This document shows, one piece after another, positions 13,018-22,790 of a DNA stretch of 51,296 bases (position 1 is the first letter of the stretch; the number at the start of each line of letters is the position of its first letter). Under the pieces are notes generated by a model. It made no database searches, was not told where the DNA came from, and saw only the letters and a program-made list of their open reading frames with translations. The stretch is from the sequence record MN432485, one strand, 5' to 3'. The stretch comes from Shigella phage SFP17. Position numbers and translations under genes: made by a program.

Positions 13018-13153
13018 CGTCTTTATGCCAGTTGCTTACATATCGCTTACAAATGTTTTATATCTATTCCTGACAGTTAGGCGCATACTCTTTGTCGTAA
13101 CATAAATGTTGCAAACTTTTTTTAATTTTTTTAACGTCAAAGAGGAATTTACT

Positions 13154-13855
13154 ATGTCAGATATGACTTTACTGCCTACTGGTGGTGGTTTTGGTGGCGA
13201 AGCTGGCGCGGCTGGTCTTGGCGGTGCTGTTGGCGGCCTGATTGGGTCATGGTTTGGTAACGGCTTTAATGGTCGTGGTGGTTATGGTGGTGATGGTGCT
13301 GCTGTTGCTGTCGGTGCTAACGCTGTTCTTGATGGAATTAATAACATCCAGACAGGAGTTAACAACCTTGGTCTGCAAACTCTGCAAGGCCAAAATTCCA
13401 CAAACCTTGCCGTTGAGCGCTCCGCTGCATCAACCTTTAACGGCATTACCAGCCAGAATACGCAAAACCTGCTTGCATCGGTGCAAGGTTTCGCAGGACT
13501 GAATACCGCGATTGTTAGCGGCACTAACCAGACAGTTGCTGCGATTAATGCTGCTGATGTTAATGCTCTTGAGCGTTCCTATCAGGCACAGATTGCAGCG
13601 GAGAGATGTTGCTGCGAGACTAACCTGAACATTGAGCGACAAGGTAACGCAACGCGAGATCTGATTCGTCAACAGTTTGCTGATTCTCAGGCTGTTTTGA
13701 TTTGCGATATGAAAGCTCAGTTGCAGGAAGCGCGTTTTGCTCTATCTCAGGCAAACCAGACCGCCGCACTGAATTGCAAAATCAACCAGGTAGAGCAATT
13801 GGTAAACTTCAAGTTGCCTACCCCTCAGACTCCGCCTACTGGCTGTTGCGGCTGA
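13154..13855 (+). CDS. glycine-rich protein with Cys clusters (233 aa), unknown function
   Basis: RBS AAGAGGAA; N-terminal ~60 aa Gly-rich, Q/N/T/A-rich middle, CCCE and C-terminal TGCCG; flanked by terminator hairpins. Confidence 0.65.
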   Translation: MSDMTLLPTGGGFGGEAGAAGLGGAVGGLIGSWFGNGFNGRGGYGGDGAAVAVGANAVLDGINNIQTGVNNLGLQTLQGQNSTNLAVERSAASTFNGITSQNTQNLLASVQGFAGLNTAIVSGTNQTVAAINAADVNALERSYQAQIAAERCCCETNLNIERQGNATRDLIRQQFADSQAVLICDMKAQLQEARFALSQANQTAALNCKINQVEQLVNFKLPTPQTPPTGCCG

Positions 13856-16190: not shown

Positions 16191-16469
16191 TTAATGTTTT
16201 GTTTCTTCTTTGGTGTGTAATTTAATCAGATTTTCCATCATGCGATCAGAACTTTCTTTTACCGCCTTTATTGCTTCCTCGTTGTCTTCGCTCATTGTTG
16301 CAACAAGTACGACGTTATCGACTGCATCCATTACTTTTCTGATGTACTCCATTTCTTCTGCGCCTGCCGTTGGATCAAGCGGCGCCACAAAGTCACGAAG
16401 CAACATAGCCATGCCGGTTGCAAAATTATTGATATGAATTGCTACCTCTGACACTTGTTTGTTTTCCAT
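16191..16469 (-). CDS. hypothetical protein (92 aa)
   Basis: RBS AAGGA; between exonuclease and erf. Confidence 0.6.
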   Translation of the reverse strand: MENKQVSEVAIHINNFATGMAMLLRDFVAPLDPTAGAEEMEYIRKVMDAVDNVVLVATMSEDNEEAIKAVKESSDRMMENLIKLHTKEETKH

Positions 16470-17612: not shown

Positions 17613-17722
17613 GATTTGCCCTCATTGGTTGGTATGTCTGCATTGTAGCTATTTGATGCGTTTAGTCAATAGTTATTTTGTTTTTTCTGTTCTAACAACG
17701 TTCTCACCAACTTGGATAACAA

Positions 17723-17738
17723 AACTTACATGTAAGTT
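17723..17738. promoter_or_regulatory. 16-bp perfect palindrome AACTTACATGTAAGTT
   Basis: Exact inverted repeat ~110 bp upstream of exonuclease start, flanked by GGATAACAAA and TTGATAAAT. Confidence 0.4.
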
Positions 17739-17830
17739 ATTGATAAATATACGCGTTGTCTTTTTGTTCTCTTGTTCCTCCATTTGCGCCGGATATAGAT
17801 ATATAGACACACACAACCACTGACACATAC

Positions 17831-17940
17831 ATAATCACAATAAAAATCACCGGACACGCAAAATCACACAAAACATAGATAACAAGAAAAAACAAATATA
17901 AATATATATACTACTAACTTATTGATTTATATGTATGTAT
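17831..17940. repeat. iteron/AT-rich repeat block, copy A
   Basis: ATCACA/ATCACC iterons incl. TAAAAATCACC, then AACAAATATAAATATATATACTACTAACTTATTGATTT; ~85 percent identical core to 47491-47530; plus strand almost G-free. Confidence 0.6.
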
Positions 17941-18039
17941 ATATATTTATCTGTATGTATTGCGCTCTATTGTTGCTCACATTTTGAGCTAAATTTAAGC
18001 CTCCGCAGATTTGAGAACGCAGGATAACAAAAAGAACAG

Positions 18040-18083
18040 GATAGCACTTTTTGCTAAACGCCCACCGCAAGATCGTGTATAGT
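18040..18083 (+). promoter_or_regulatory. conserved-motif promoter upstream of cor
   Basis: GATAGCACTTTTTGCTAAACG + 21 nt + TATAGT. Confidence 0.5.
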
Positions 18084-18114
18084 TGCAACCAACAACAACT
18101 AAGGAGACACCAAA

Positions 18115-18342
18115 ATGAAAAAGTTAATCGCCGTTTTGATTGCCACCGTTGCACTGACTGGATGTGCAAATATGCCTAAGCGTGAATGCACGGCTATTTA
18201 TGAAAATAGCGGCATGCAGTATTCAGTTGCTATTTTTGGAGCAAAACGAGTTGGCGATCGCACTCTTGTTAAGGCTGGCTATCCGTTTAATTTTCAGTGG
18301 GTAAGTATTGATAACTTTAAAAACGCTGATTGCAGCATGTAA
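18115..18342 (+). CDS. cor: Cor-like superinfection-exclusion lipoprotein
   Basis: Signal peptide with lipobox LTGC; 75 aa; between tail and recombination modules; strong RBS AAGGAGA and own motif promoter. Confidence 0.55.
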   Translation: MKKLIAVLIATVALTGCANMPKRECTAIYENSGMQYSVAIFGAKRVGDRTLVKAGYPFNFQWVSIDNFKNADCSM

Positions 18343-18352
18343 ATAAAAATAA

Positions 18353-18376
18353 AGGGGCGAAAGCCCCTTTTTCTAT
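18353..18376. terminator. bidirectional intrinsic terminator after cor / end of tail operon
   Basis: AGGGGC-gaaa-GCCCCT with T-rich flanks on both strands. Confidence 0.75.
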
Positions 18377-19014
18377 TGGTCGTAAACATCAGTCTTTATT
18401 GCAATTATTGAATTTCCGTTATTTGTTATAGAGCCTGTTCCTGGCGTTGTCCTTGCTGCACCTATCCTTGTGCTTGAACCATCATACCTGCATGATGTAT
18501 ATATGTCAGACGCACCCATACCTATAACCGCACCAAGCCTTGATGGGCAAACAGCATAAGAACCAGATAATGTCTGATCTATATTAGTTCCCCCTGAAGA
18601 ACCAGGAGTACCAATTGTCACAAGGTCTGTTAGCACCCTGCTTTCATTAGTTAAAACCAACTTGCCGCTTGCATCCCATATAGCCATGCCATATTTTGGT
18701 AGAGTTTGAGGGAATATGGCAAATATATAAACAGTCATTGTAAATGATTGACCGTATGGATTGCCTCCGTTTACATAAATGTTGCCACCATTCCTGTAAG
18801 CTATTAATGCAGTTGGCTGCTGTGTGTTTGTTGTTTTTATAAATGCCATACATGGATAAGATTGGTTTAATGGTATATTTGCGCTTGCGCTATGATAGGC
18901 AGAAGTGCCAGAAGATGAATAAGTGTACTTGCCATATAAGCAAAATGGCGTTGATTTTGGTGTGATAAATGGATTCCCATTTGATAAAGATAACATTGCT
19001 CCATATTCAGCCAT
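18373..19014 (-). CDS. putative tail-tip associated protein, paralog B (213 aa)
   Basis: ATG at 19014 with RBS GAGAGGG; N-terminus MAEYG shared with upstream gene; internal WDASGK repeat of the N-terminal WDANGK. Confidence 0.6.
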   Translation of the reverse strand: MAEYGAMLSLSNGNPFITPKSTPFCLYGKYTYSSSGTSAYHSASANIPLNQSYPCMAFIKTTNTQQPTALIAYRNGGNIYVNGGNPYGQSFTMTVYIFAIFPQTLPKYGMAIWDASGKLVLTNESRVLTDLVTIGTPGSSGGTNIDQTLSGSYAVCPSRLGAVIGMGASDIYTSCRYDGSSTRIGAARTTPGTGSITNNGNSIIAIKTDVYDQ

Positions 19015-19015
19015 T

Positions 19016-19321
19016 TTAAGCCCTCTCAAGAAAAACAACTAACTCGCACTTTGAAGAAGAATACCTATTTGGACCAACTGACGATATAGGACTAATTCTT
19101 ATTGTATTTCCAGATGCCACTATTTCCCTTCCAACTCCTCTAGCGCCTTCATCAAGTGAAACAACATACCCAACCTTAAAACCACTTGGAATGCTAAAGC
19201 TCCACGATCCGCTTGTCTGACCAGCGGCAAGACTGATGACACCAACAACGGAAACTGGCTTGATTCCGTAGTTGTTATACTTCCCGTTAGCATCCCACGT
19301 TGAAACACCATATTCAGCCAT
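19016..19321 (-). CDS. putative tail-tip associated protein, paralog A (101 aa)
   Basis: ATG at 19321 with strong RBS GGAGG; MAEYGVSTWDANGK N-terminus; directly downstream of J. Confidence 0.55.
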   Translation of the reverse strand: MAEYGVSTWDANGKYNNYGIKPVSVVGVISLAAGQTSGSWSFSIPSGFKVGYVVSLDEGARGVGREIVASGNTIRISPISSVGPNRYSSSKCELVVFLERA

Positions 19322-19339
19322 TATTAAACCTCCATAAAT

Positions 19340-19357
19340 GCGGGGCAAACGCCCCGC
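19340..19357 (-). terminator. hairpin after J-like gene (weak terminator)
   Basis: GCGGGGC-aaac-GCCCCGC followed by ATTTAT on minus strand. Confidence 0.35.
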
Positions 19358-19364
19358 TTTGATT

Positions 19365-22300
19365 TTACCACGTACCAGTAAGCCTACCAATCTGAACACG
19401 CAAGCGCCCGTTTGCATCCCTAACGCTGATCGTTTCGTTTGTCATTTTCATGGCTCCCTCTCCAGGAGTAGAACCATAATTTTCAAACGTGCCGTTTTTA
19501 TCCAACCTCCATCCTGTTTGATTCCAAACGTAATTGTTTGATTGGATGAAGTTACCGATCATGGCGTTTGTGATTGATCCGTTCTTAACTAACAAGCTGT
19601 TGATGAATACTTGGTTATTTTCAACAACGAAAGGCAGCGTATACACTCCGCCAGTCGAACTTGTCATGATGGCGAACCTGTTCGCATCAAACAAAATCTG
19701 CGAAATAAGGCCGGATGAACCCTGCGAAAGCTGCATTACCATTCCTGCGCTGTACTGCTGCCCGTTGTAGGTCAATCCCAATTTCATTGCGTACTGTGAA
19801 CCAACGCCATTAACGCCAGCCCATGAATCAAGTTTTTCAGTCAGCGCCGATTCAACATCTCCAAACTTCGCTGTTAATGCTGTATCAGCCGAAACGCGCG
19901 CCTCTGTTTCGTTTGCAATCGCTTCCTCAACCCGCGTTAATTGCCCCTGAATATCATCACCAATCTGTGATTTCAATTCCTCAATGGCTGTTGCTCGCGT
20001 TTCCGATTCTGTTGCAATTGCCTGATCAAGCCTCGTTACTTCGCTAGTTATTTCCTCGTCAAATTCAGCCTTGAGTTGCGTCATTGCGGTAACGCGCGCC
20101 TCAGTTTCACTTGCGATCAATTGGATTGATTGCCTGAATTCGGCTTTGCGTTTTCCGTTTTCCTTCCTCATAATCCTGACGTCTGCATCATTCGCCAATG
20201 CGTTTTGAATGATGCTTTGTGCCTGATCCTTGATTTTGTTTGCGCTATCAATGGCATTCTCTTTCAGATCCTTTCCTGCTTCGGTATCAAAAATCTTATC
20301 AAGAATATCGCCTAAAACAGCCTCCACATCATCTGAAGCCATGCCTCTAACAAAATCAGTCCAGCCGGAAACGTTGCCGATTCTGTCAACGCTGCGGATT
20401 CTATACCATACAACATGACCAGCCGGAAGCGTACCGTGCCAGTATTCATATTGTGGATATGGGATCAGCGTTAACAGGCTTGAGTTTTCCGCTGTTCCAT
20501 CTGGCGACTGATGAAGCTCAATGTATGCCGTGTCTCCGCTCCCTTCTGGCATCCCCCACTTAACACGAATGCCAAACACCTCATTGTCGGATGCTGTTAA
20601 GTTAATTGGCGCGCCTGGCTCTCCTACCTTACCAGTCAGTGAAGCTGTCACAATTCTGGACCAAGGAGACGTAGAACCGGAAGCAGAAACAGATCTAACC
20701 CTTACCTGGTAGTTTCCTGAATAAATACCTTCAACCTCAATTTCTTTGTTTGCAGTCTGTGGTGTATTCAGCCAGTTGCCATCACCTTTTCGCCATTGCA
20801 TTTCATACAGCGATGCGTAAGGTACTTTATCCCACGACACAACCATTGTTTCAACGCTTGCACCCTGGACAATTCGCGAGTATGAGGATATTTGCACATT
20901 TTCCGGTGCTGCCATTGTGTCAGGCTGGACAATTGACGTTGGTCTGTCGTCAATGTTTACTCCATAATCAATCTCGTCGTATTTGTTCGGGTCATATTCA
21001 ACAGCCGTGATGGAGTATGTAAACTCATCATCATCATCACCTTTGCCGATACTCGTTACAACGTATTGCTGCAATGCAATATCAGTGCGGTCGATTGCAA
21101 AAACTGTGTCTGGTTTAACTTCAAACCCAAAACCAATGTTTAGTTCAATAGTTTTTCCGTCACCGCTTACTTTTGAGATTGTGCGCTTAACTGGCTTTCC
21201 GTCCGGTTTGTTGATGATAATGAAATCACCTGGTCGCGCGTCAATCTTAAACGGAGCGAACACCTGCAAGCCGGAAACTTCCATCACGCGCCCTGATAGG
21301 TTTAATTTAAGGTTGCTGCTGTGAAAATTGTCAGCAATAGCAATCACATCACCTATTGATGGGATCATGCCTTCCAGTCCAGTAGCAAAGTTTACCGTAG
21401 TGCTGCGCAAGTTGGTTTTTAGTATCCATCGACCGCGCCGATTAGCCTCACTCCTGCGTGTACATCCGATCGCGGTTATGCTTGTAGGATTGTATCCAAA
21501 GCGCAATGCTGCCTCGTTGTCGAATACGCCCTCTACGTCCTGTTGATACATGTTTTGTTCGTCGTCGAACGTCACGTTGCACTGCGTGTACATGCTCTTT
21601 TCGCTTGCTGTTGTGTACTGAAAATCACCATCAACAACGTTGTCATTGGTGAAGATGTACGACGGATCGCGCGGCTTATCAATGACGATTGACAAGCTCT
21701 CGCCATTCCAAAAGCTCATTCCTCGGAAGATTGAGCAAATATCACGAATAAGCTGATAAGCCTCAATCTGGCTTTGAATCACAACGTCGCATAGATAACG
21801 CGGCTCTGTACCGCCTTTTCCATCCGGCACTTTCTGATCGCAGTATTGCGCCGCTTCGTAAAGACTCCATTTGTCAACCTGCACACCAAGTTCTCGCTGA
21901 TCTAATCCGTATCGCTGGTTTGTGATAATGTCATAAAGAACCCACGCCGGATTGTTCGACCACGCTTTCTTGAAAGTACCATCCCATGAACCGTGATACT
22001 CTCGCATTACCGGATCGTAATTGCTCGGAACATTAATTAACTTCCATTTCTTCTTGATTGAAATGTTAGGGATCTGGTTAGGGAACAACTCACTGTCAAA
22101 TTCAACGTATACAAGACCAGTCAGAGGATAACGGAATTTTGCATCAATAACCTCAGCGTAACTTTGTATCTTAATCAGATCAGTAACACGAGAAGATGCG
22201 CTGTCTGCCGTAACCCTTCTAACCCTAAGTAATACGCGATCATTAAATGCCGGAAGGTCAATCCTTCGGCTCCTGTCGTAACCTGACCGCGTTTTACCTT

Positions 22301-22790
22301 CGATAGTGTCTCGCAATACTTCTTTGTAAGAGTCTCCGTCAACAGCCATATCAACAGCATAAGTGACCTTAACACCTACAAGATCGCCGTTATCCTCTTG
22401 CTTGATGCCTGTTGGCATTAGCATTTTGATTCTGATAGCCGATAATGTTTTGTTGGTTACAGAAATTACATAAGGATTTGATGTAGTAATGTCACGCGCC
22501 AGCGTCACTTCGCTTGATGTGTCAGTAAATCCCTGGATGTAATCTTGCGTCTGCGTTCCAGGTCGAAATTCAGCTTTCACACCCTGGTAGTTAACAGTTC
22601 CGTCGTCTGCAATTACCGGAACATCATCAAGATACAGATCGCGAAGTGTAAAACTTGGATCGCACTCACCATCGGAAACGGCAAGAAGTATTTTGATTTT
22701 GTTGATTGAGATCAGGTTATCTTCCATCTCTTTCGGAACATAAGGTTTTGATGATCCACCCTTACTGCCCGTTATCATATTTTCAGCCAT
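19365..22790 (-). CDS. tail tip / host-specificity protein (lambda J-like)
   Basis: 1141 aa; lambda J-like size and position after I/K/L/M; RBS AAGGTG. Confidence 0.9.
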   Translation of the reverse strand: MAENMITGSKGGSSKPYVPKEMEDNLISINKIKILLAVSDGECDPSFTLRDLYLDDVPVIADDGTVNYQGVKAEFRPGTQTQDYIQGFTDTSSEVTLARDITTSNPYVISVTNKTLSAIRIKMLMPTGIKQEDNGDLVGVKVTYAVDMAVDGDSYKEVLRDTIEGKTRSGYDRSRRIDLPAFNDRVLLRVRRVTADSASSRVTDLIKIQSYAEVIDAKFRYPLTGLVYVEFDSELFPNQIPNISIKKKWKLINVPSNYDPVMREYHGSWDGTFKKAWSNNPAWVLYDIITNQRYGLDQRELGVQVDKWSLYEAAQYCDQKVPDGKGGTEPRYLCDVVIQSQIEAYQLIRDICSIFRGMSFWNGESLSIVIDKPRDPSYIFTNDNVVDGDFQYTTASEKSMYTQCNVTFDDEQNMYQQDVEGVFDNEAALRFGYNPTSITAIGCTRRSEANRRGRWILKTNLRSTTVNFATGLEGMIPSIGDVIAIADNFHSSNLKLNLSGRVMEVSGLQVFAPFKIDARPGDFIIINKPDGKPVKRTISKVSGDGKTIELNIGFGFEVKPDTVFAIDRTDIALQQYVVTSIGKGDDDDEFTYSITAVEYDPNKYDEIDYGVNIDDRPTSIVQPDTMAAPENVQISSYSRIVQGASVETMVVSWDKVPYASLYEMQWRKGDGNWLNTPQTANKEIEVEGIYSGNYQVRVRSVSASGSTSPWSRIVTASLTGKVGEPGAPINLTASDNEVFGIRVKWGMPEGSGDTAYIELHQSPDGTAENSSLLTLIPYPQYEYWHGTLPAGHVVWYRIRSVDRIGNVSGWTDFVRGMASDDVEAVLGDILDKIFDTEAGKDLKENAIDSANKIKDQAQSIIQNALANDADVRIMRKENGKRKAEFRQSIQLIASETEARVTAMTQLKAEFDEEITSEVTRLDQAIATESETRATAIEELKSQIGDDIQGQLTRVEEAIANETEARVSADTALTAKFGDVESALTEKLDSWAGVNGVGSQYAMKLGLTYNGQQYSAGMVMQLSQGSSGLISQILFDANRFAIMTSSTGGVYTLPFVVENNQVFINSLLVKNGSITNAMIGNFIQSNNYVWNQTGWRLDKNGTFENYGSTPGEGAMKMTNETISVRDANGRLRVQIGRLTGTW

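Follow-up and report, generated by a model that had tools for sequence, protein, structure and literature searches.

A probable FhuA-type host-recognition cassette with a Cor exclusion lipoprotein downstream of the J-like gene of Shigella phage SFP17

The genes that follow the J-like gene in the window analysed here (the whole stretch of 51,296 nucleotides of Shigella phage SFP17 DNA, sequence record MN432485) are best explained, as a whole, as a host-recognition cassette of the FhuA type in a coliphage that is T1-like (Drexlerviridae, Hanrivervirus-like), an explanation that we regard as probable. The cassette comprises the gene for a J-like central tail fibre or tip attachment protein of 1141 aa (19365..22790, minus strand), two genes on the same strand that code for proteins of 101 aa (19016..19321) and 213 aa (18373..19014), and cor (18115..18342, plus strand), which encodes a lipoprotein with a 75-aa precursor and is separated from a divergent exonuclease gene by an AT-rich non-coding region of 502 bp (17613..18114). 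An earlier note, made from the sequence, had described two consecutive genes downstream of the J-like gene, both starting with MAEYG, and they are indeed read at 19016-19321 and 18373-19014. There are 43 nt from the stop codon of J to the start of the 101-aa gene, whose own stop (TAA) is followed by one base and then by the ATG of the 213-aa gene, and the two genes may be translationally coupled. The arrangement is already known, as ST32/ST31/cor in T1 and as gp22/gp23/cor in N15, and the locus is ordinary, with near-identical FhuA-type loci in many sequenced phages; the exception is the larger protein, which appears to be distantly related to a phage receptor-binding protein (RBP) of solved structure. 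Such a cassette sets the outer-membrane receptor of a T1-like phage and whether the infected cell can be reinfected, which makes it the region to consult for host-range prediction and to swap for engineering.

In the mechanism proposed here, the late tail transcript would run from J through a hairpin into the two closely spaced genes, whose products, devoid of signal peptides, would be made in the cytoplasm and would come together at the end of the trimeric J fibre, on its last ~40 residues, which are allele-specific. The larger protein (213 aa, two-lobed and all-beta) would be the RBP, engaging the extracellular face of FhuA and triggering irreversible adsorption, and the 101-aa protein, a beta-sandwich with an invariant arm at its N-terminus, would be an adaptor or partner at the J tip. 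Once exported, Cor would carry a lipid at Cys17 and, having Ala at position +2, would end up in the outer membrane, in its inner leaflet, where it would bind the periplasmic side of FhuA and block RBP binding, and by this block superinfecting FhuA phages would be excluded and progeny would not be lost on cell debris.

The DNA of the locus is 94-96% identical to that of Hanriverviruses, and the three cassette proteins share 96.0%, 97.7% and 96.0% identity with those of phage JLBYU41, which depends on FhuA by experiment (PMC10373560); by this near-identity of proteins, the phage of the window is likewise predicted to be FhuA-dependent. In the BASEL collection, Cor and both upstream proteins are found together in 10 phages, all of them FhuA users (PMC13164509, section 2.5), and the site downstream of gpJ has been called a "bona fide RBP locus" (PMC8594841). 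The order J, small protein, large protein is kept in T1, N15, Klebsiella phage Sushi and Aeromonas phage pAEv1818, and cor lies on the opposite strand in T1, as in the window, on the same strand as the pair in N15, and is absent in Sushi and pAEv1818. T1 (where cor is ST30) and N15 share with the window the sizes (101, 213-229 and 75-78 aa) as well as the order after J, although their large proteins are longer than that of the window by ~11-16 residues, the variable segment being located at about residues 165-170; phi80, HK022 and the mEp lambdoid phages are grouped with this T1/N15 system. Homologues of the large protein, the small protein and Cor were found in 351, 345 and 430 phage records, respectively, of which 111, 111 and 3 are from Klebsiella phages, and the taxon breakdown of the 101-aa homologues is the same as that of the 213-aa protein.

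The earlier note had also pointed to a 75-aa Cor-like lipoprotein on the opposite strand, and this identification holds. The protein matches the NCBIfam equivalog NF047972 "phage exclusion lipoprotein Cor" over residues 1-74 with 66.1 bits (cut-off 31; E 2e-18), and phrog_1119 with an E of 9e-28. Its N-terminus (MKKLIAVLIATVALTG followed by C) consists of a signal peptide and an LTGC lipobox (18154-18165), which is covered by a Pfam LPAM_1 match at residues 1-18. The residue after the lipidated Cys is Ala, and Ala in this position directs lipoproteins to the outer membrane. Cor shares 55% identity with its T1 counterpart and 32% with that of N15, and C17, C25, C73 and the AGYPF sequence are invariant in an alignment with both. 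Its best sequence match in the PDB is Llp from T5 (8a60_B; phmmer E 0.038 over residues 1-70, partly signal peptide), and for another Cor the similarity in fold with Llp has been reported (TM 0.69; PMC13164509). Exclusion of FhuA-dependent phages, with binding or inactivation of FhuA, is known for the Cor proteins of phi80, N15, mEp167 and T1 (literature cited in PMC13164509), and an AlphaFold3 model of the contact between Cor and FhuA has been built by others (PMC13164509); by analogy with those proteins and from that model, the allele in the window would be expected to contact FhuA as well. A comparable logic, with the same receptor, has been described for the pb5/Llp system of T5, in which an RBP held non-covalently on the central fibre binds FhuA and an adjacent, divergent or convergent, gene encodes a small outer-membrane lipoprotein that blocks FhuA from the periplasm (PMC9586334). 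However, pb5 has 640 aa and is unrelated in sequence, the similarity between Llp and Cor is marginal, and T5 has no counterpart of the small-protein pair.

The 101-aa protein is the orthologue of T1 ST32 and N15 gp22 (60-65% identity) and matches phrog_557 with an E of 7.7e-30. Its AF2 model (pLDDT 88.3) is a beta-sandwich preceded by an arm of about 20 N-terminal residues that is modelled with low confidence but hardly varies within the family. The 213-aa protein is the orthologue of T1 ST31 and N15 gp23 (55-57% identity; phrog_425, E 3.1e-69), and its AF2 model is confident (pLDDT 90.9). The two N-termini (MAEYGAMLSLSNG and MAEYGVSTWDANG) have no basic residues in their first 8 aa, signal peptides and transmembrane segments are absent from both proteins, and the maximal Kyte-Doolittle means over 19 aa are 0.93 and 1.05. 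Searches against Pfam and NCBIfam gave no match for either protein, and no solved structure was found by sequence for either family.

The modelled fold of the 213-aa protein is shared with the solved RBP of a small siphophage, Oekolampad (Bas18) bas18_0025 (PDB 9rpt, chain C). The 213-aa protein also cross-matches phrog_1265 (E 3.6e-5, residues 38-194), the family that the Oekolampad RBP matches over its full length (E 2e-122). When the two families were compared with hhalign, the corresponding regions were aligned, but with an E of 0.014 and a probability of 3%; the Pfam search of the 213-aa protein gave no match at E <= 1, including DUF6453/PF20051, the domain present in all homologues of the Oekolampad RBP, and a profile search through 1.84 billion proteins, whose hits were all ~205-240 aa long, retrieved none of the 320-aa LptD-type family. 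Taken together, the 213-aa protein appears to be a remote homologue of the LptD-type RBP, and FhuA- and LptD-type RBPs appear to share ancestry. There are also differences between both systems: the receptor of the Oekolampad RBP is LptD instead of FhuA, the protein is one chain of 321 aa compared to the 101 and 213 aa of the window, its gene lies on the strand opposite to J, whereas the pair in the window lies on the J strand, and the exclusion lipoprotein of Oekolampad (Rtp45 type, phrog_4281) belongs to a different family than Cor. The earlier note had seen in the MAEYG proteins candidate receptor-binding or tail-tip accessory proteins, to be checked by homology and structure prediction, and both approaches point that way, the former through orthology with T1 and N15 proteins at the RBP locus and the latter through a predicted fold like that of 9rpt_C. 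The 213-aa protein is probably the FhuA-binding RBP. In published in silico modelling, a "hand-like" protein of ~21-23 kDa is favoured as terminator of the J tip and FhuA binder (PMC12309495), and virion and receptor-binding roles of the pair have been proposed from in silico models (PMC12309495; 10.64898/2026.04.02.716166). In the virion-proteomics literature, the SH6 paper deals with a phage whose locus differs, and the mEpimmI paper is uninformative. Two natural fusions were not accepted as signs of an interaction: P0360, in which part of J is joined to the large protein, comes from a heavily deleted prophage remnant, and P0211 is a read-through fragment.

The J protein matches Pfam Phage_Tail_Tip (E 1.6e-39), FNIII-A_GpJ and Phage-tail_3, as well as phrog_31. 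Among phages with the same downstream pair (T1, N15, PeterMerian and Klebsiella phage Sushi), the identity of its last 45 aa is 64-91%; in IsaakIselin, whose locus is of the YncD type, identity falls to 42% in these 45 aa, against 71% in the preceding 45. The last 45 residues of J co-vary with the type of downstream locus, a co-variation also described in a preprint (10.64898/2026.04.02.716166), and the last ~40-45 residues are probably the docking site for the downstream proteins. In the cryo-EM map of the T1 tail tip, the C-terminal part of J, and anything attached to it, is unresolved (PMC11945409).

Different roles could be given to these proteins. The database names ("outer membrane protein" for phrog_557 and "membrane associated protein" for phrog_425, in the category "moron") imply that the MAEYG pair are membrane or outer-membrane (Lom-like) proteins of the Cor exclusion system that help to block FhuA, as is also assumed in the KanT1 paper. 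Although the pair is constantly associated with cor in FhuA phages, and a role in exclusion has been speculated (PMC13164509), this is highly improbable: the pair is co-oriented with J and directly follows it, whereas cor switches strand or is absent; the fold of the 213-aa protein matches a solved RBP; and Cor/Llp homologues occur in T5-like phages that lack the pair. Because the two proteins lack a signal peptide or membrane segment, always come after J, and are present in 111 Klebsiella phage records nearly without Cor (3 records), the MAEYG pair are tail genes, neither exclusion genes nor genes for "membrane proteins", whose products we infer to be located in the virion; the database names are unsupported and should read tail-tip/RBP proteins. 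Recognition of FhuA could also reside in the C-terminal tip of J or in the 101-aa protein, leaving the 213-aa protein as a decoration or a binder of a secondary receptor (e.g., LPS). There is a precedent in lambda, where J binds LamB, its C-terminal receptor-binding domain serving this function at the far end of a central fibre that is homologous. We consider this unlikely, however, as the J tip is also found in Klebsiella phages and varies little where the RBP body varies greatly, in Oekolampad it is the homologue of the 213-aa protein that cryo-EM shows on the receptor (10.1101/2025.07.07.663478), and J-FhuA and small-protein-FhuA contacts had poor confidence in published models (PMC12309495).

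The role of the small protein is the part of the cassette for which the competing explanation has more weight. Tail-fibre assembly proteins are known that act during assembly and are then released, and the 101-aa protein might be a chaperone of this kind, needed for folding or attachment of an RBP of 213 aa and not present in the virion. It is small, its gene lies immediately upstream of the RBP gene, 1 nt apart, the LptD-type locus works without such a small gene, and published multimer models preferred the large protein capping J over a trimer of the small protein (PMC12309495). On the other hand, its near-invariant 25 N-terminal residues carry the hairpin-like motif of the RBP and are more in keeping with a stable interface than with a transient one, the YncD-type locus retains a 101-aa partner with the same motif, and the protein was not found to resemble Caudo_TAP or other families of chaperones; the chaperone role is thus the less likely one, while keeping an appreciable chance. 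The 101-aa protein is probably an adaptor or partner of the RBP at the J tip, a role that we infer from these features.

Both MAEYG proteins share the short motif WDA(N/S)GK, as had been pointed out before: WDANGK occupies residues 9-14 of the 101-aa protein (19280..19297, minus strand) and WDASGK residues 113-118 of the 213-aa protein (18661..18678, minus strand). Among the 559 six-frame ORFs of the window (46,734 residues), WDA[NS]GK and MAEYG occur twice each, confined to these two proteins, against ~0.0006 matches to WDA[NS]GK expected from composition. WDANGK belongs to a conserved hairpin-like motif, YG-x3-W-D-x2-G. In the AF2 model, WDASGK is placed in an internal beta-hairpin (strands at residues 111-113 and 119-122), just past the break between two strand-rich blocks (gap at residues 100-110), and this segment is the part of the 213-aa protein that aligns with the N-terminus of the 101-aa protein. 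The earlier note had considered the element to be duplicated in the longer protein, but the literal element occurs there once, the other copy being degenerate (YGAMLSLSNGNPF, residues 4-16). This N-terminal copy of the hairpin motif (residues 4-17, YGAMLSLSNGNPFI; 18964..19005, minus strand) is modelled with strands at residues 7-9 and 15-17, with a pLDDT of just 67-70, and its kinship with the internal copy becomes clear only in remote family members, such as P0433 (YGLKVIAENGNAFILP and YGLRIFDKNGILIYNL). The proposed paralogy of the two MAEYG proteins stands for the short hairpin motif and was rejected for the full length, where BLASTP aligns 14 residues and hhalign is confident over 18 columns only. 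Comparisons of half proteins gave E values of 0.13 (D1 against D2), 9.5e-4 (small protein against D1) and 2.8e-5 (small protein against D2), with confidence only in the motif, and for this reason the claim of paralogy is kept at the level of the motif. With an HMM of the motif, J ranks third of the 559 ORFs (E 1.4, not significant).

The YncD-type locus of IsaakIselin (Bas10) resembles that of the window in sizes, order and motif positions, with a 101-aa protein that starts with MPGLQAWDASGN and, after it, a protein of 217 aa in which residues 109-114 read FDASGN. Nevertheless, its proteins belong to other PHROG families (7961 and 4524), the locus lies opposite to the J strand, the receptor is a different one, and the third gene encodes a 110-aa protein with a signal peptide in place of Cor. 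It is conceivable, and we propose it tentatively as a doubtful idea, that the MAEYG/WDAxGK element marks one ancient "hairpin plus beta-sandwich" module ancestral to FhuA-, YncD- and LptD-type RBPs, the 101-aa protein being a detached tail-proximal module that is still fused in the 321-aa LptD-type RBP (101 + 213 ~ 321), and the N-terminal hairpin being a universal plug of the J tip. Segment-wise hhalign of the small protein against the first 100 aa of the LptD-type RBP (a "split gene") gave weak E values of 0.002-0.24, and the FhuA-, YncD- and LptD-type RBP families have been called unrelated in a 2026 preprint. If a single ancient module existed, the J tip, adaptor and RBP could be exchanged together to re-engineer receptor specificity. 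What is added here to the literature is slight, namely the corrected tail-tip/RBP naming, the apparent ancestry shared by FhuA- and LptD-type RBPs and the architecture in common with the YncD-type pair; if true, shared ancestry and architecture would unify loci that are now treated as unrelated. The J tip was also seen to end in D-A-N-G turns that resemble the hairpin motif.

Two G+C-rich hairpins flank the MAEYG genes. The one located between J and the 101-aa gene (19340..19357, minus strand) has a 7-bp all-GC stem (-16.5 kcal/mol, z -2.8) and is followed by a GGAGG ribosome-binding site at 19329-19333. T1 also has a hairpin after J, which is annotated as a rho-independent terminator, but because the coding strand shows just a weak U-tract, the hairpin in the window is at most a candidate leaky attenuator. 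The second (18351..18370) has an 8-bp stem with T-runs on both sides and scores as terminator-like on either strand (-13.9 and -14.2 kcal/mol), consistent with a bidirectional intrinsic terminator common to the convergent cor and 213-aa genes, the same arrangement that is annotated in T1. The lipoprotein gene had been credited in the earlier note with its own promoter and terminator; the terminator is there at 18351-18370, shared with the tail genes, but the promoter could not be upheld, as the number of promoter matches in the cor region is no higher than in shuffles. A scan of that region with the sigma-70 consensus gave nothing convincing, just weak matches (the best one 9/12, 270 nt upstream). 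The cor promoter is presumably contained in the 17613..18114 region, which is conserved in 197 phage records. The ribosome-binding site of cor, AAGGAG, is located at 18101-18106. A putative -10 element, TATAGT, was read by eye at 18078-18083.

Downstream of the J-like gene (19365-22790, minus strand), which codes for a 1141-aa tail tip protein with the Pfam domains Phage_Tail_Tip, FNIII-A_GpJ and Phage-tail_3, two genes of the same strand code for proteins of 101 aa (19016-19321) and 213 aa (18373-19014), the second starting one base past the stop codon of the first (TAA-A-ATG). As the earlier note had read, both begin with MAEYG and have a WDA(N/S)GK element in common, which reads WDANGK in the short protein (residues 9-14) and WDASGK in the long one (residues 113-118). 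Among the 559 six-frame ORFs of the window, MAEYG and WDA[NS]GK are confined to these two proteins, with 0.0006 matches to the latter expected from composition. The internal duplication claimed for the long protein holds only in a looser form: the literal motif occurs once, and the hairpin at residues 108-122 has a degenerate counterpart at residues 4-17 (YGAMLSLSNGNPFI), a duplication that becomes evident in distant relatives such as the homologous protein P0433, with YGLKVIAENGNAFILP and YGLRIFDKNGILIYNL. The proposed paralogy has statistical support in a hairpin-like motif, [YW]G-x3-[WF]-D-x2-G, and nowhere beyond it. An HMM of the first 26 residues of the small protein has the large one as its best non-self match (E 6e-4, 559 ORFs), an HMM of the internal motif of the large protein matches the small one (E 0.031), and profile-profile comparison of the two gives E 4.8e-5 over 18 columns. 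The end of J also has turns resembling WDAxGK (GWRLDKNGTFE and SVRDANGRLRV), a resemblance that is not statistically significant.

The MAEYG proteins are most probably products of tail genes, not of membrane or exclusion genes. Both lack a signal peptide and any hydrophobic segment, which contradicts their database names as membrane proteins. J is followed by the small and then the large protein in T1, N15, Klebsiella phage Sushi and Aeromonas phage pAEv1818 alike; the last two lack cor, which is convergent in T1 and co-directional in N15. In the phage collection, the large protein is found in 351 records and the small one in 345, and their spread over taxa is almost the same (111 Klebsiella records each); Cor is found in 430 records, just 3 of them from Klebsiella, and many T5-like phages contain Cor and lack the pair. 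Between phages with this pair, identity over the final 45 residues of J is 64-91%; in a close relative with a YncD-type locus it is 42%, against 71% for the 45 residues before them. These last ~45 residues (window 19368-19500) co-vary with the type of the downstream receptor-binding protein (RBP) locus, which suggests the very end of J as the place of docking; the T1 cryo-EM map leaves the C-terminal portion of J unresolved (PMC11945409). In a 139-aa bacterial ORF (P0211), the J C-terminus (…RVQVGRLTG) runs directly into the small protein (MAYGIQTWDASGK…), probably a decayed prophage that has lost a stop codon.

The AlphaFold2 model of the 213-aa protein (39-sequence alignment) is confidently all-beta (pLDDT 90.9, pTM 0.87), less so in the N-terminal 20 residues. 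The protein matches phrog_1265 over residues 38-194 (E 3.6e-5), a family that the solved LptD-type RBP of Oekolampad (Bas18) matches in full length (E 2e-122), and the same regions are paired, weakly (E 0.014), when hhalign compares the alignments of the two families; a Pfam search did not place it in DUF6453. The LptD-type RBP starts with a similar motif, G-I-L-I-D-Y-N-D-G-R-P. In our reading, the 213-aa protein of the FhuA type is probably a distant homologue of this small-siphophage RBP, which has been visualised by experiment. The candidacy of the MAEYG proteins as receptor-binding or tail-tip proteins is supported. In BFVD, many phages have uncharacterised proteins of 200-310 aa with this fold (17 matches at E <= 1e-3). 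In P0360, a protein of 337 aa, a J-like FN3/coiled-coil segment continues without a break into the C-terminal 170 residues of the large protein. Two independent samples contain this fusion (L014:3530-4543 and L015:4001-5014); it is part of a prophage remnant with heavy deletions, in the order small terminase, tape-measure C-terminus, tail proteins M and L, fusion, 77-aa gene and tail fibre.

The convergent gene (18115-18342, plus strand) codes for a 75-aa lipoprotein that, from its sequence, is Cor, in agreement with the resemblance to exclusion factors noticed earlier. It scores 66.1 bits with the NCBIfam model 'phage exclusion lipoprotein Cor' (curated cut-off 31 bits), matches phrog_1119 (E 9e-28), contains a lipobox (LTGC, then Ala) and retains C17, C25, C73 and the AGYPF motif of T1 and N15 Cor; its best PDB sequence match, a marginal one, is T5 Llp (E 0.038). 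The gene had been credited with its own promoter and terminator. A G+C-rich hairpin (18351-18370) between it and the MAEYG operon, terminator-like on both strands, bears out the latter; for the former, a sigma-70 scan gave no convincing candidate. Upstream of cor, an AT-rich non-coding region of 502 bp (17613-18114) extends to the divergent exonuclease gene. Conservation of the region extends to 197 phage records, and that of the two thirds nearer the exonuclease also to phages using other receptors (TolC phages DanielBernoulli and LL5). The region contains 10-bp-phased TATGTATGTA repeats (17920-17959), numerous imperfect inverted repeats and, immediately 5' of cor, a CAGGATA(A/G)CA direct repeat (18020-18046); it could serve in regulation or replication. 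Another strong hairpin (19340-19357; 7-bp stem, all GC; -16.5 kcal/mol) lies between J and the GGAGG ribosome-binding site of the 101-aa gene (minus strand), where the T1 annotation has a terminator at the equivalent site. This hairpin has a better T-run on the plus strand than on the coding one, and it could dampen expression of the RBP genes compared with J or block antisense transcripts arriving from cor.

In the mechanism that we consider rather probable, a late tail transcript would provide J and both MAEYG proteins, which would assemble on the allele-specific J tip via conserved N-terminal arms; the 213-aa protein would then bind FhuA, leading to irreversible adsorption, and Cor, expressed from its own convergent unit, would be lipidated, sent to the outer membrane and block FhuA from the periplasmic side. 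That the small protein is instead an assembly chaperone, released afterwards, seems unlikely to us, and we hold it improbable that J or the small protein is the true FhuA binder. It is hardly credible that the pair helps Cor in exclusion, a role that the absence of export signals and the distribution in Klebsiella phages both contradict.

The cassette is ordinary, because it is already known and nearly identical in many deposited phages. Its DNA is 94-96% identical to Hanriverviruses (e.g., vojen, egaa, herni and JLBYU41), and identity to the counterparts in JLBYU41, a phage shown by experiment to be FhuA-dependent (PMC10373560), is 96.0%, 97.7% and 96.0% for the three proteins, whose orthologues are T1 ST32/ST31/Cor and N15 gp22/gp23/Cor. 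The BASEL study described a 'bona fide RBP locus' downstream of gpJ, with alleles matching the terminal receptor (PMC8594841). According to the KanT1 paper, 10 BASEL phages, FhuA users without exception, have Cor together with the two proteins upstream of it, for which Foldseek and HHpred gave no matches (PMC13164509). In silico modelling in 2025 proposed ~11-kDa and ~21-23-kDa proteins as undetected J-tip RBPs (PMC12309495), and a 2026 preprint assigned an FhuA-specific RBP family and accessory proteins to this locus (10.64898/2026.04.02.716166). What goes beyond the available literature is the structural and profile link of the FhuA-type protein to the solved LptD-type RBP, the unfounded 'membrane protein' names and an architecture common to FhuA-type and YncD-type pairs. 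The YncD-type locus of IsaakIselin (Bas10; L010:3599-4973) codes for a 101-aa, a 217-aa and a 110-aa signal-peptide protein (strand opposite to J); the first starts with MPGLQAWDASGN and the second contains FDASGN near residue 110, so that motif, motif positions, protein sizes and gene order match those of the FhuA-type pair, although the PHROG families differ. Tentatively, and with more doubt than confidence, all these RBP loci may go back to a single hairpin-plus-sandwich module, the small protein being an adaptor that split off from it.

Eighteen 'Campylobacter phage' records (MG065636-MG065687, host Campylobacter jejuni) are ~94% identical to this T1-like locus of E. coli/Shigella phages, which suggests coliphage contamination or wrongly assigned hosts. 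A 92-aa ORF that lies between the exonuclease and Erf genes (16191-16469, minus strand; also L001:2293-2571) is named 'tail length tape measure protein' in RefSeq vojen, a label that is implausible for an ORF of this size within the recombination module. The composition of a 249-aa ORF (13106-13855) is unusual: its N-terminal third (GGGFGGEAGAAGLGGAVGG...) is rich in Gly, it contains a CCC cluster, and its C-terminus reads ...TGCCG.
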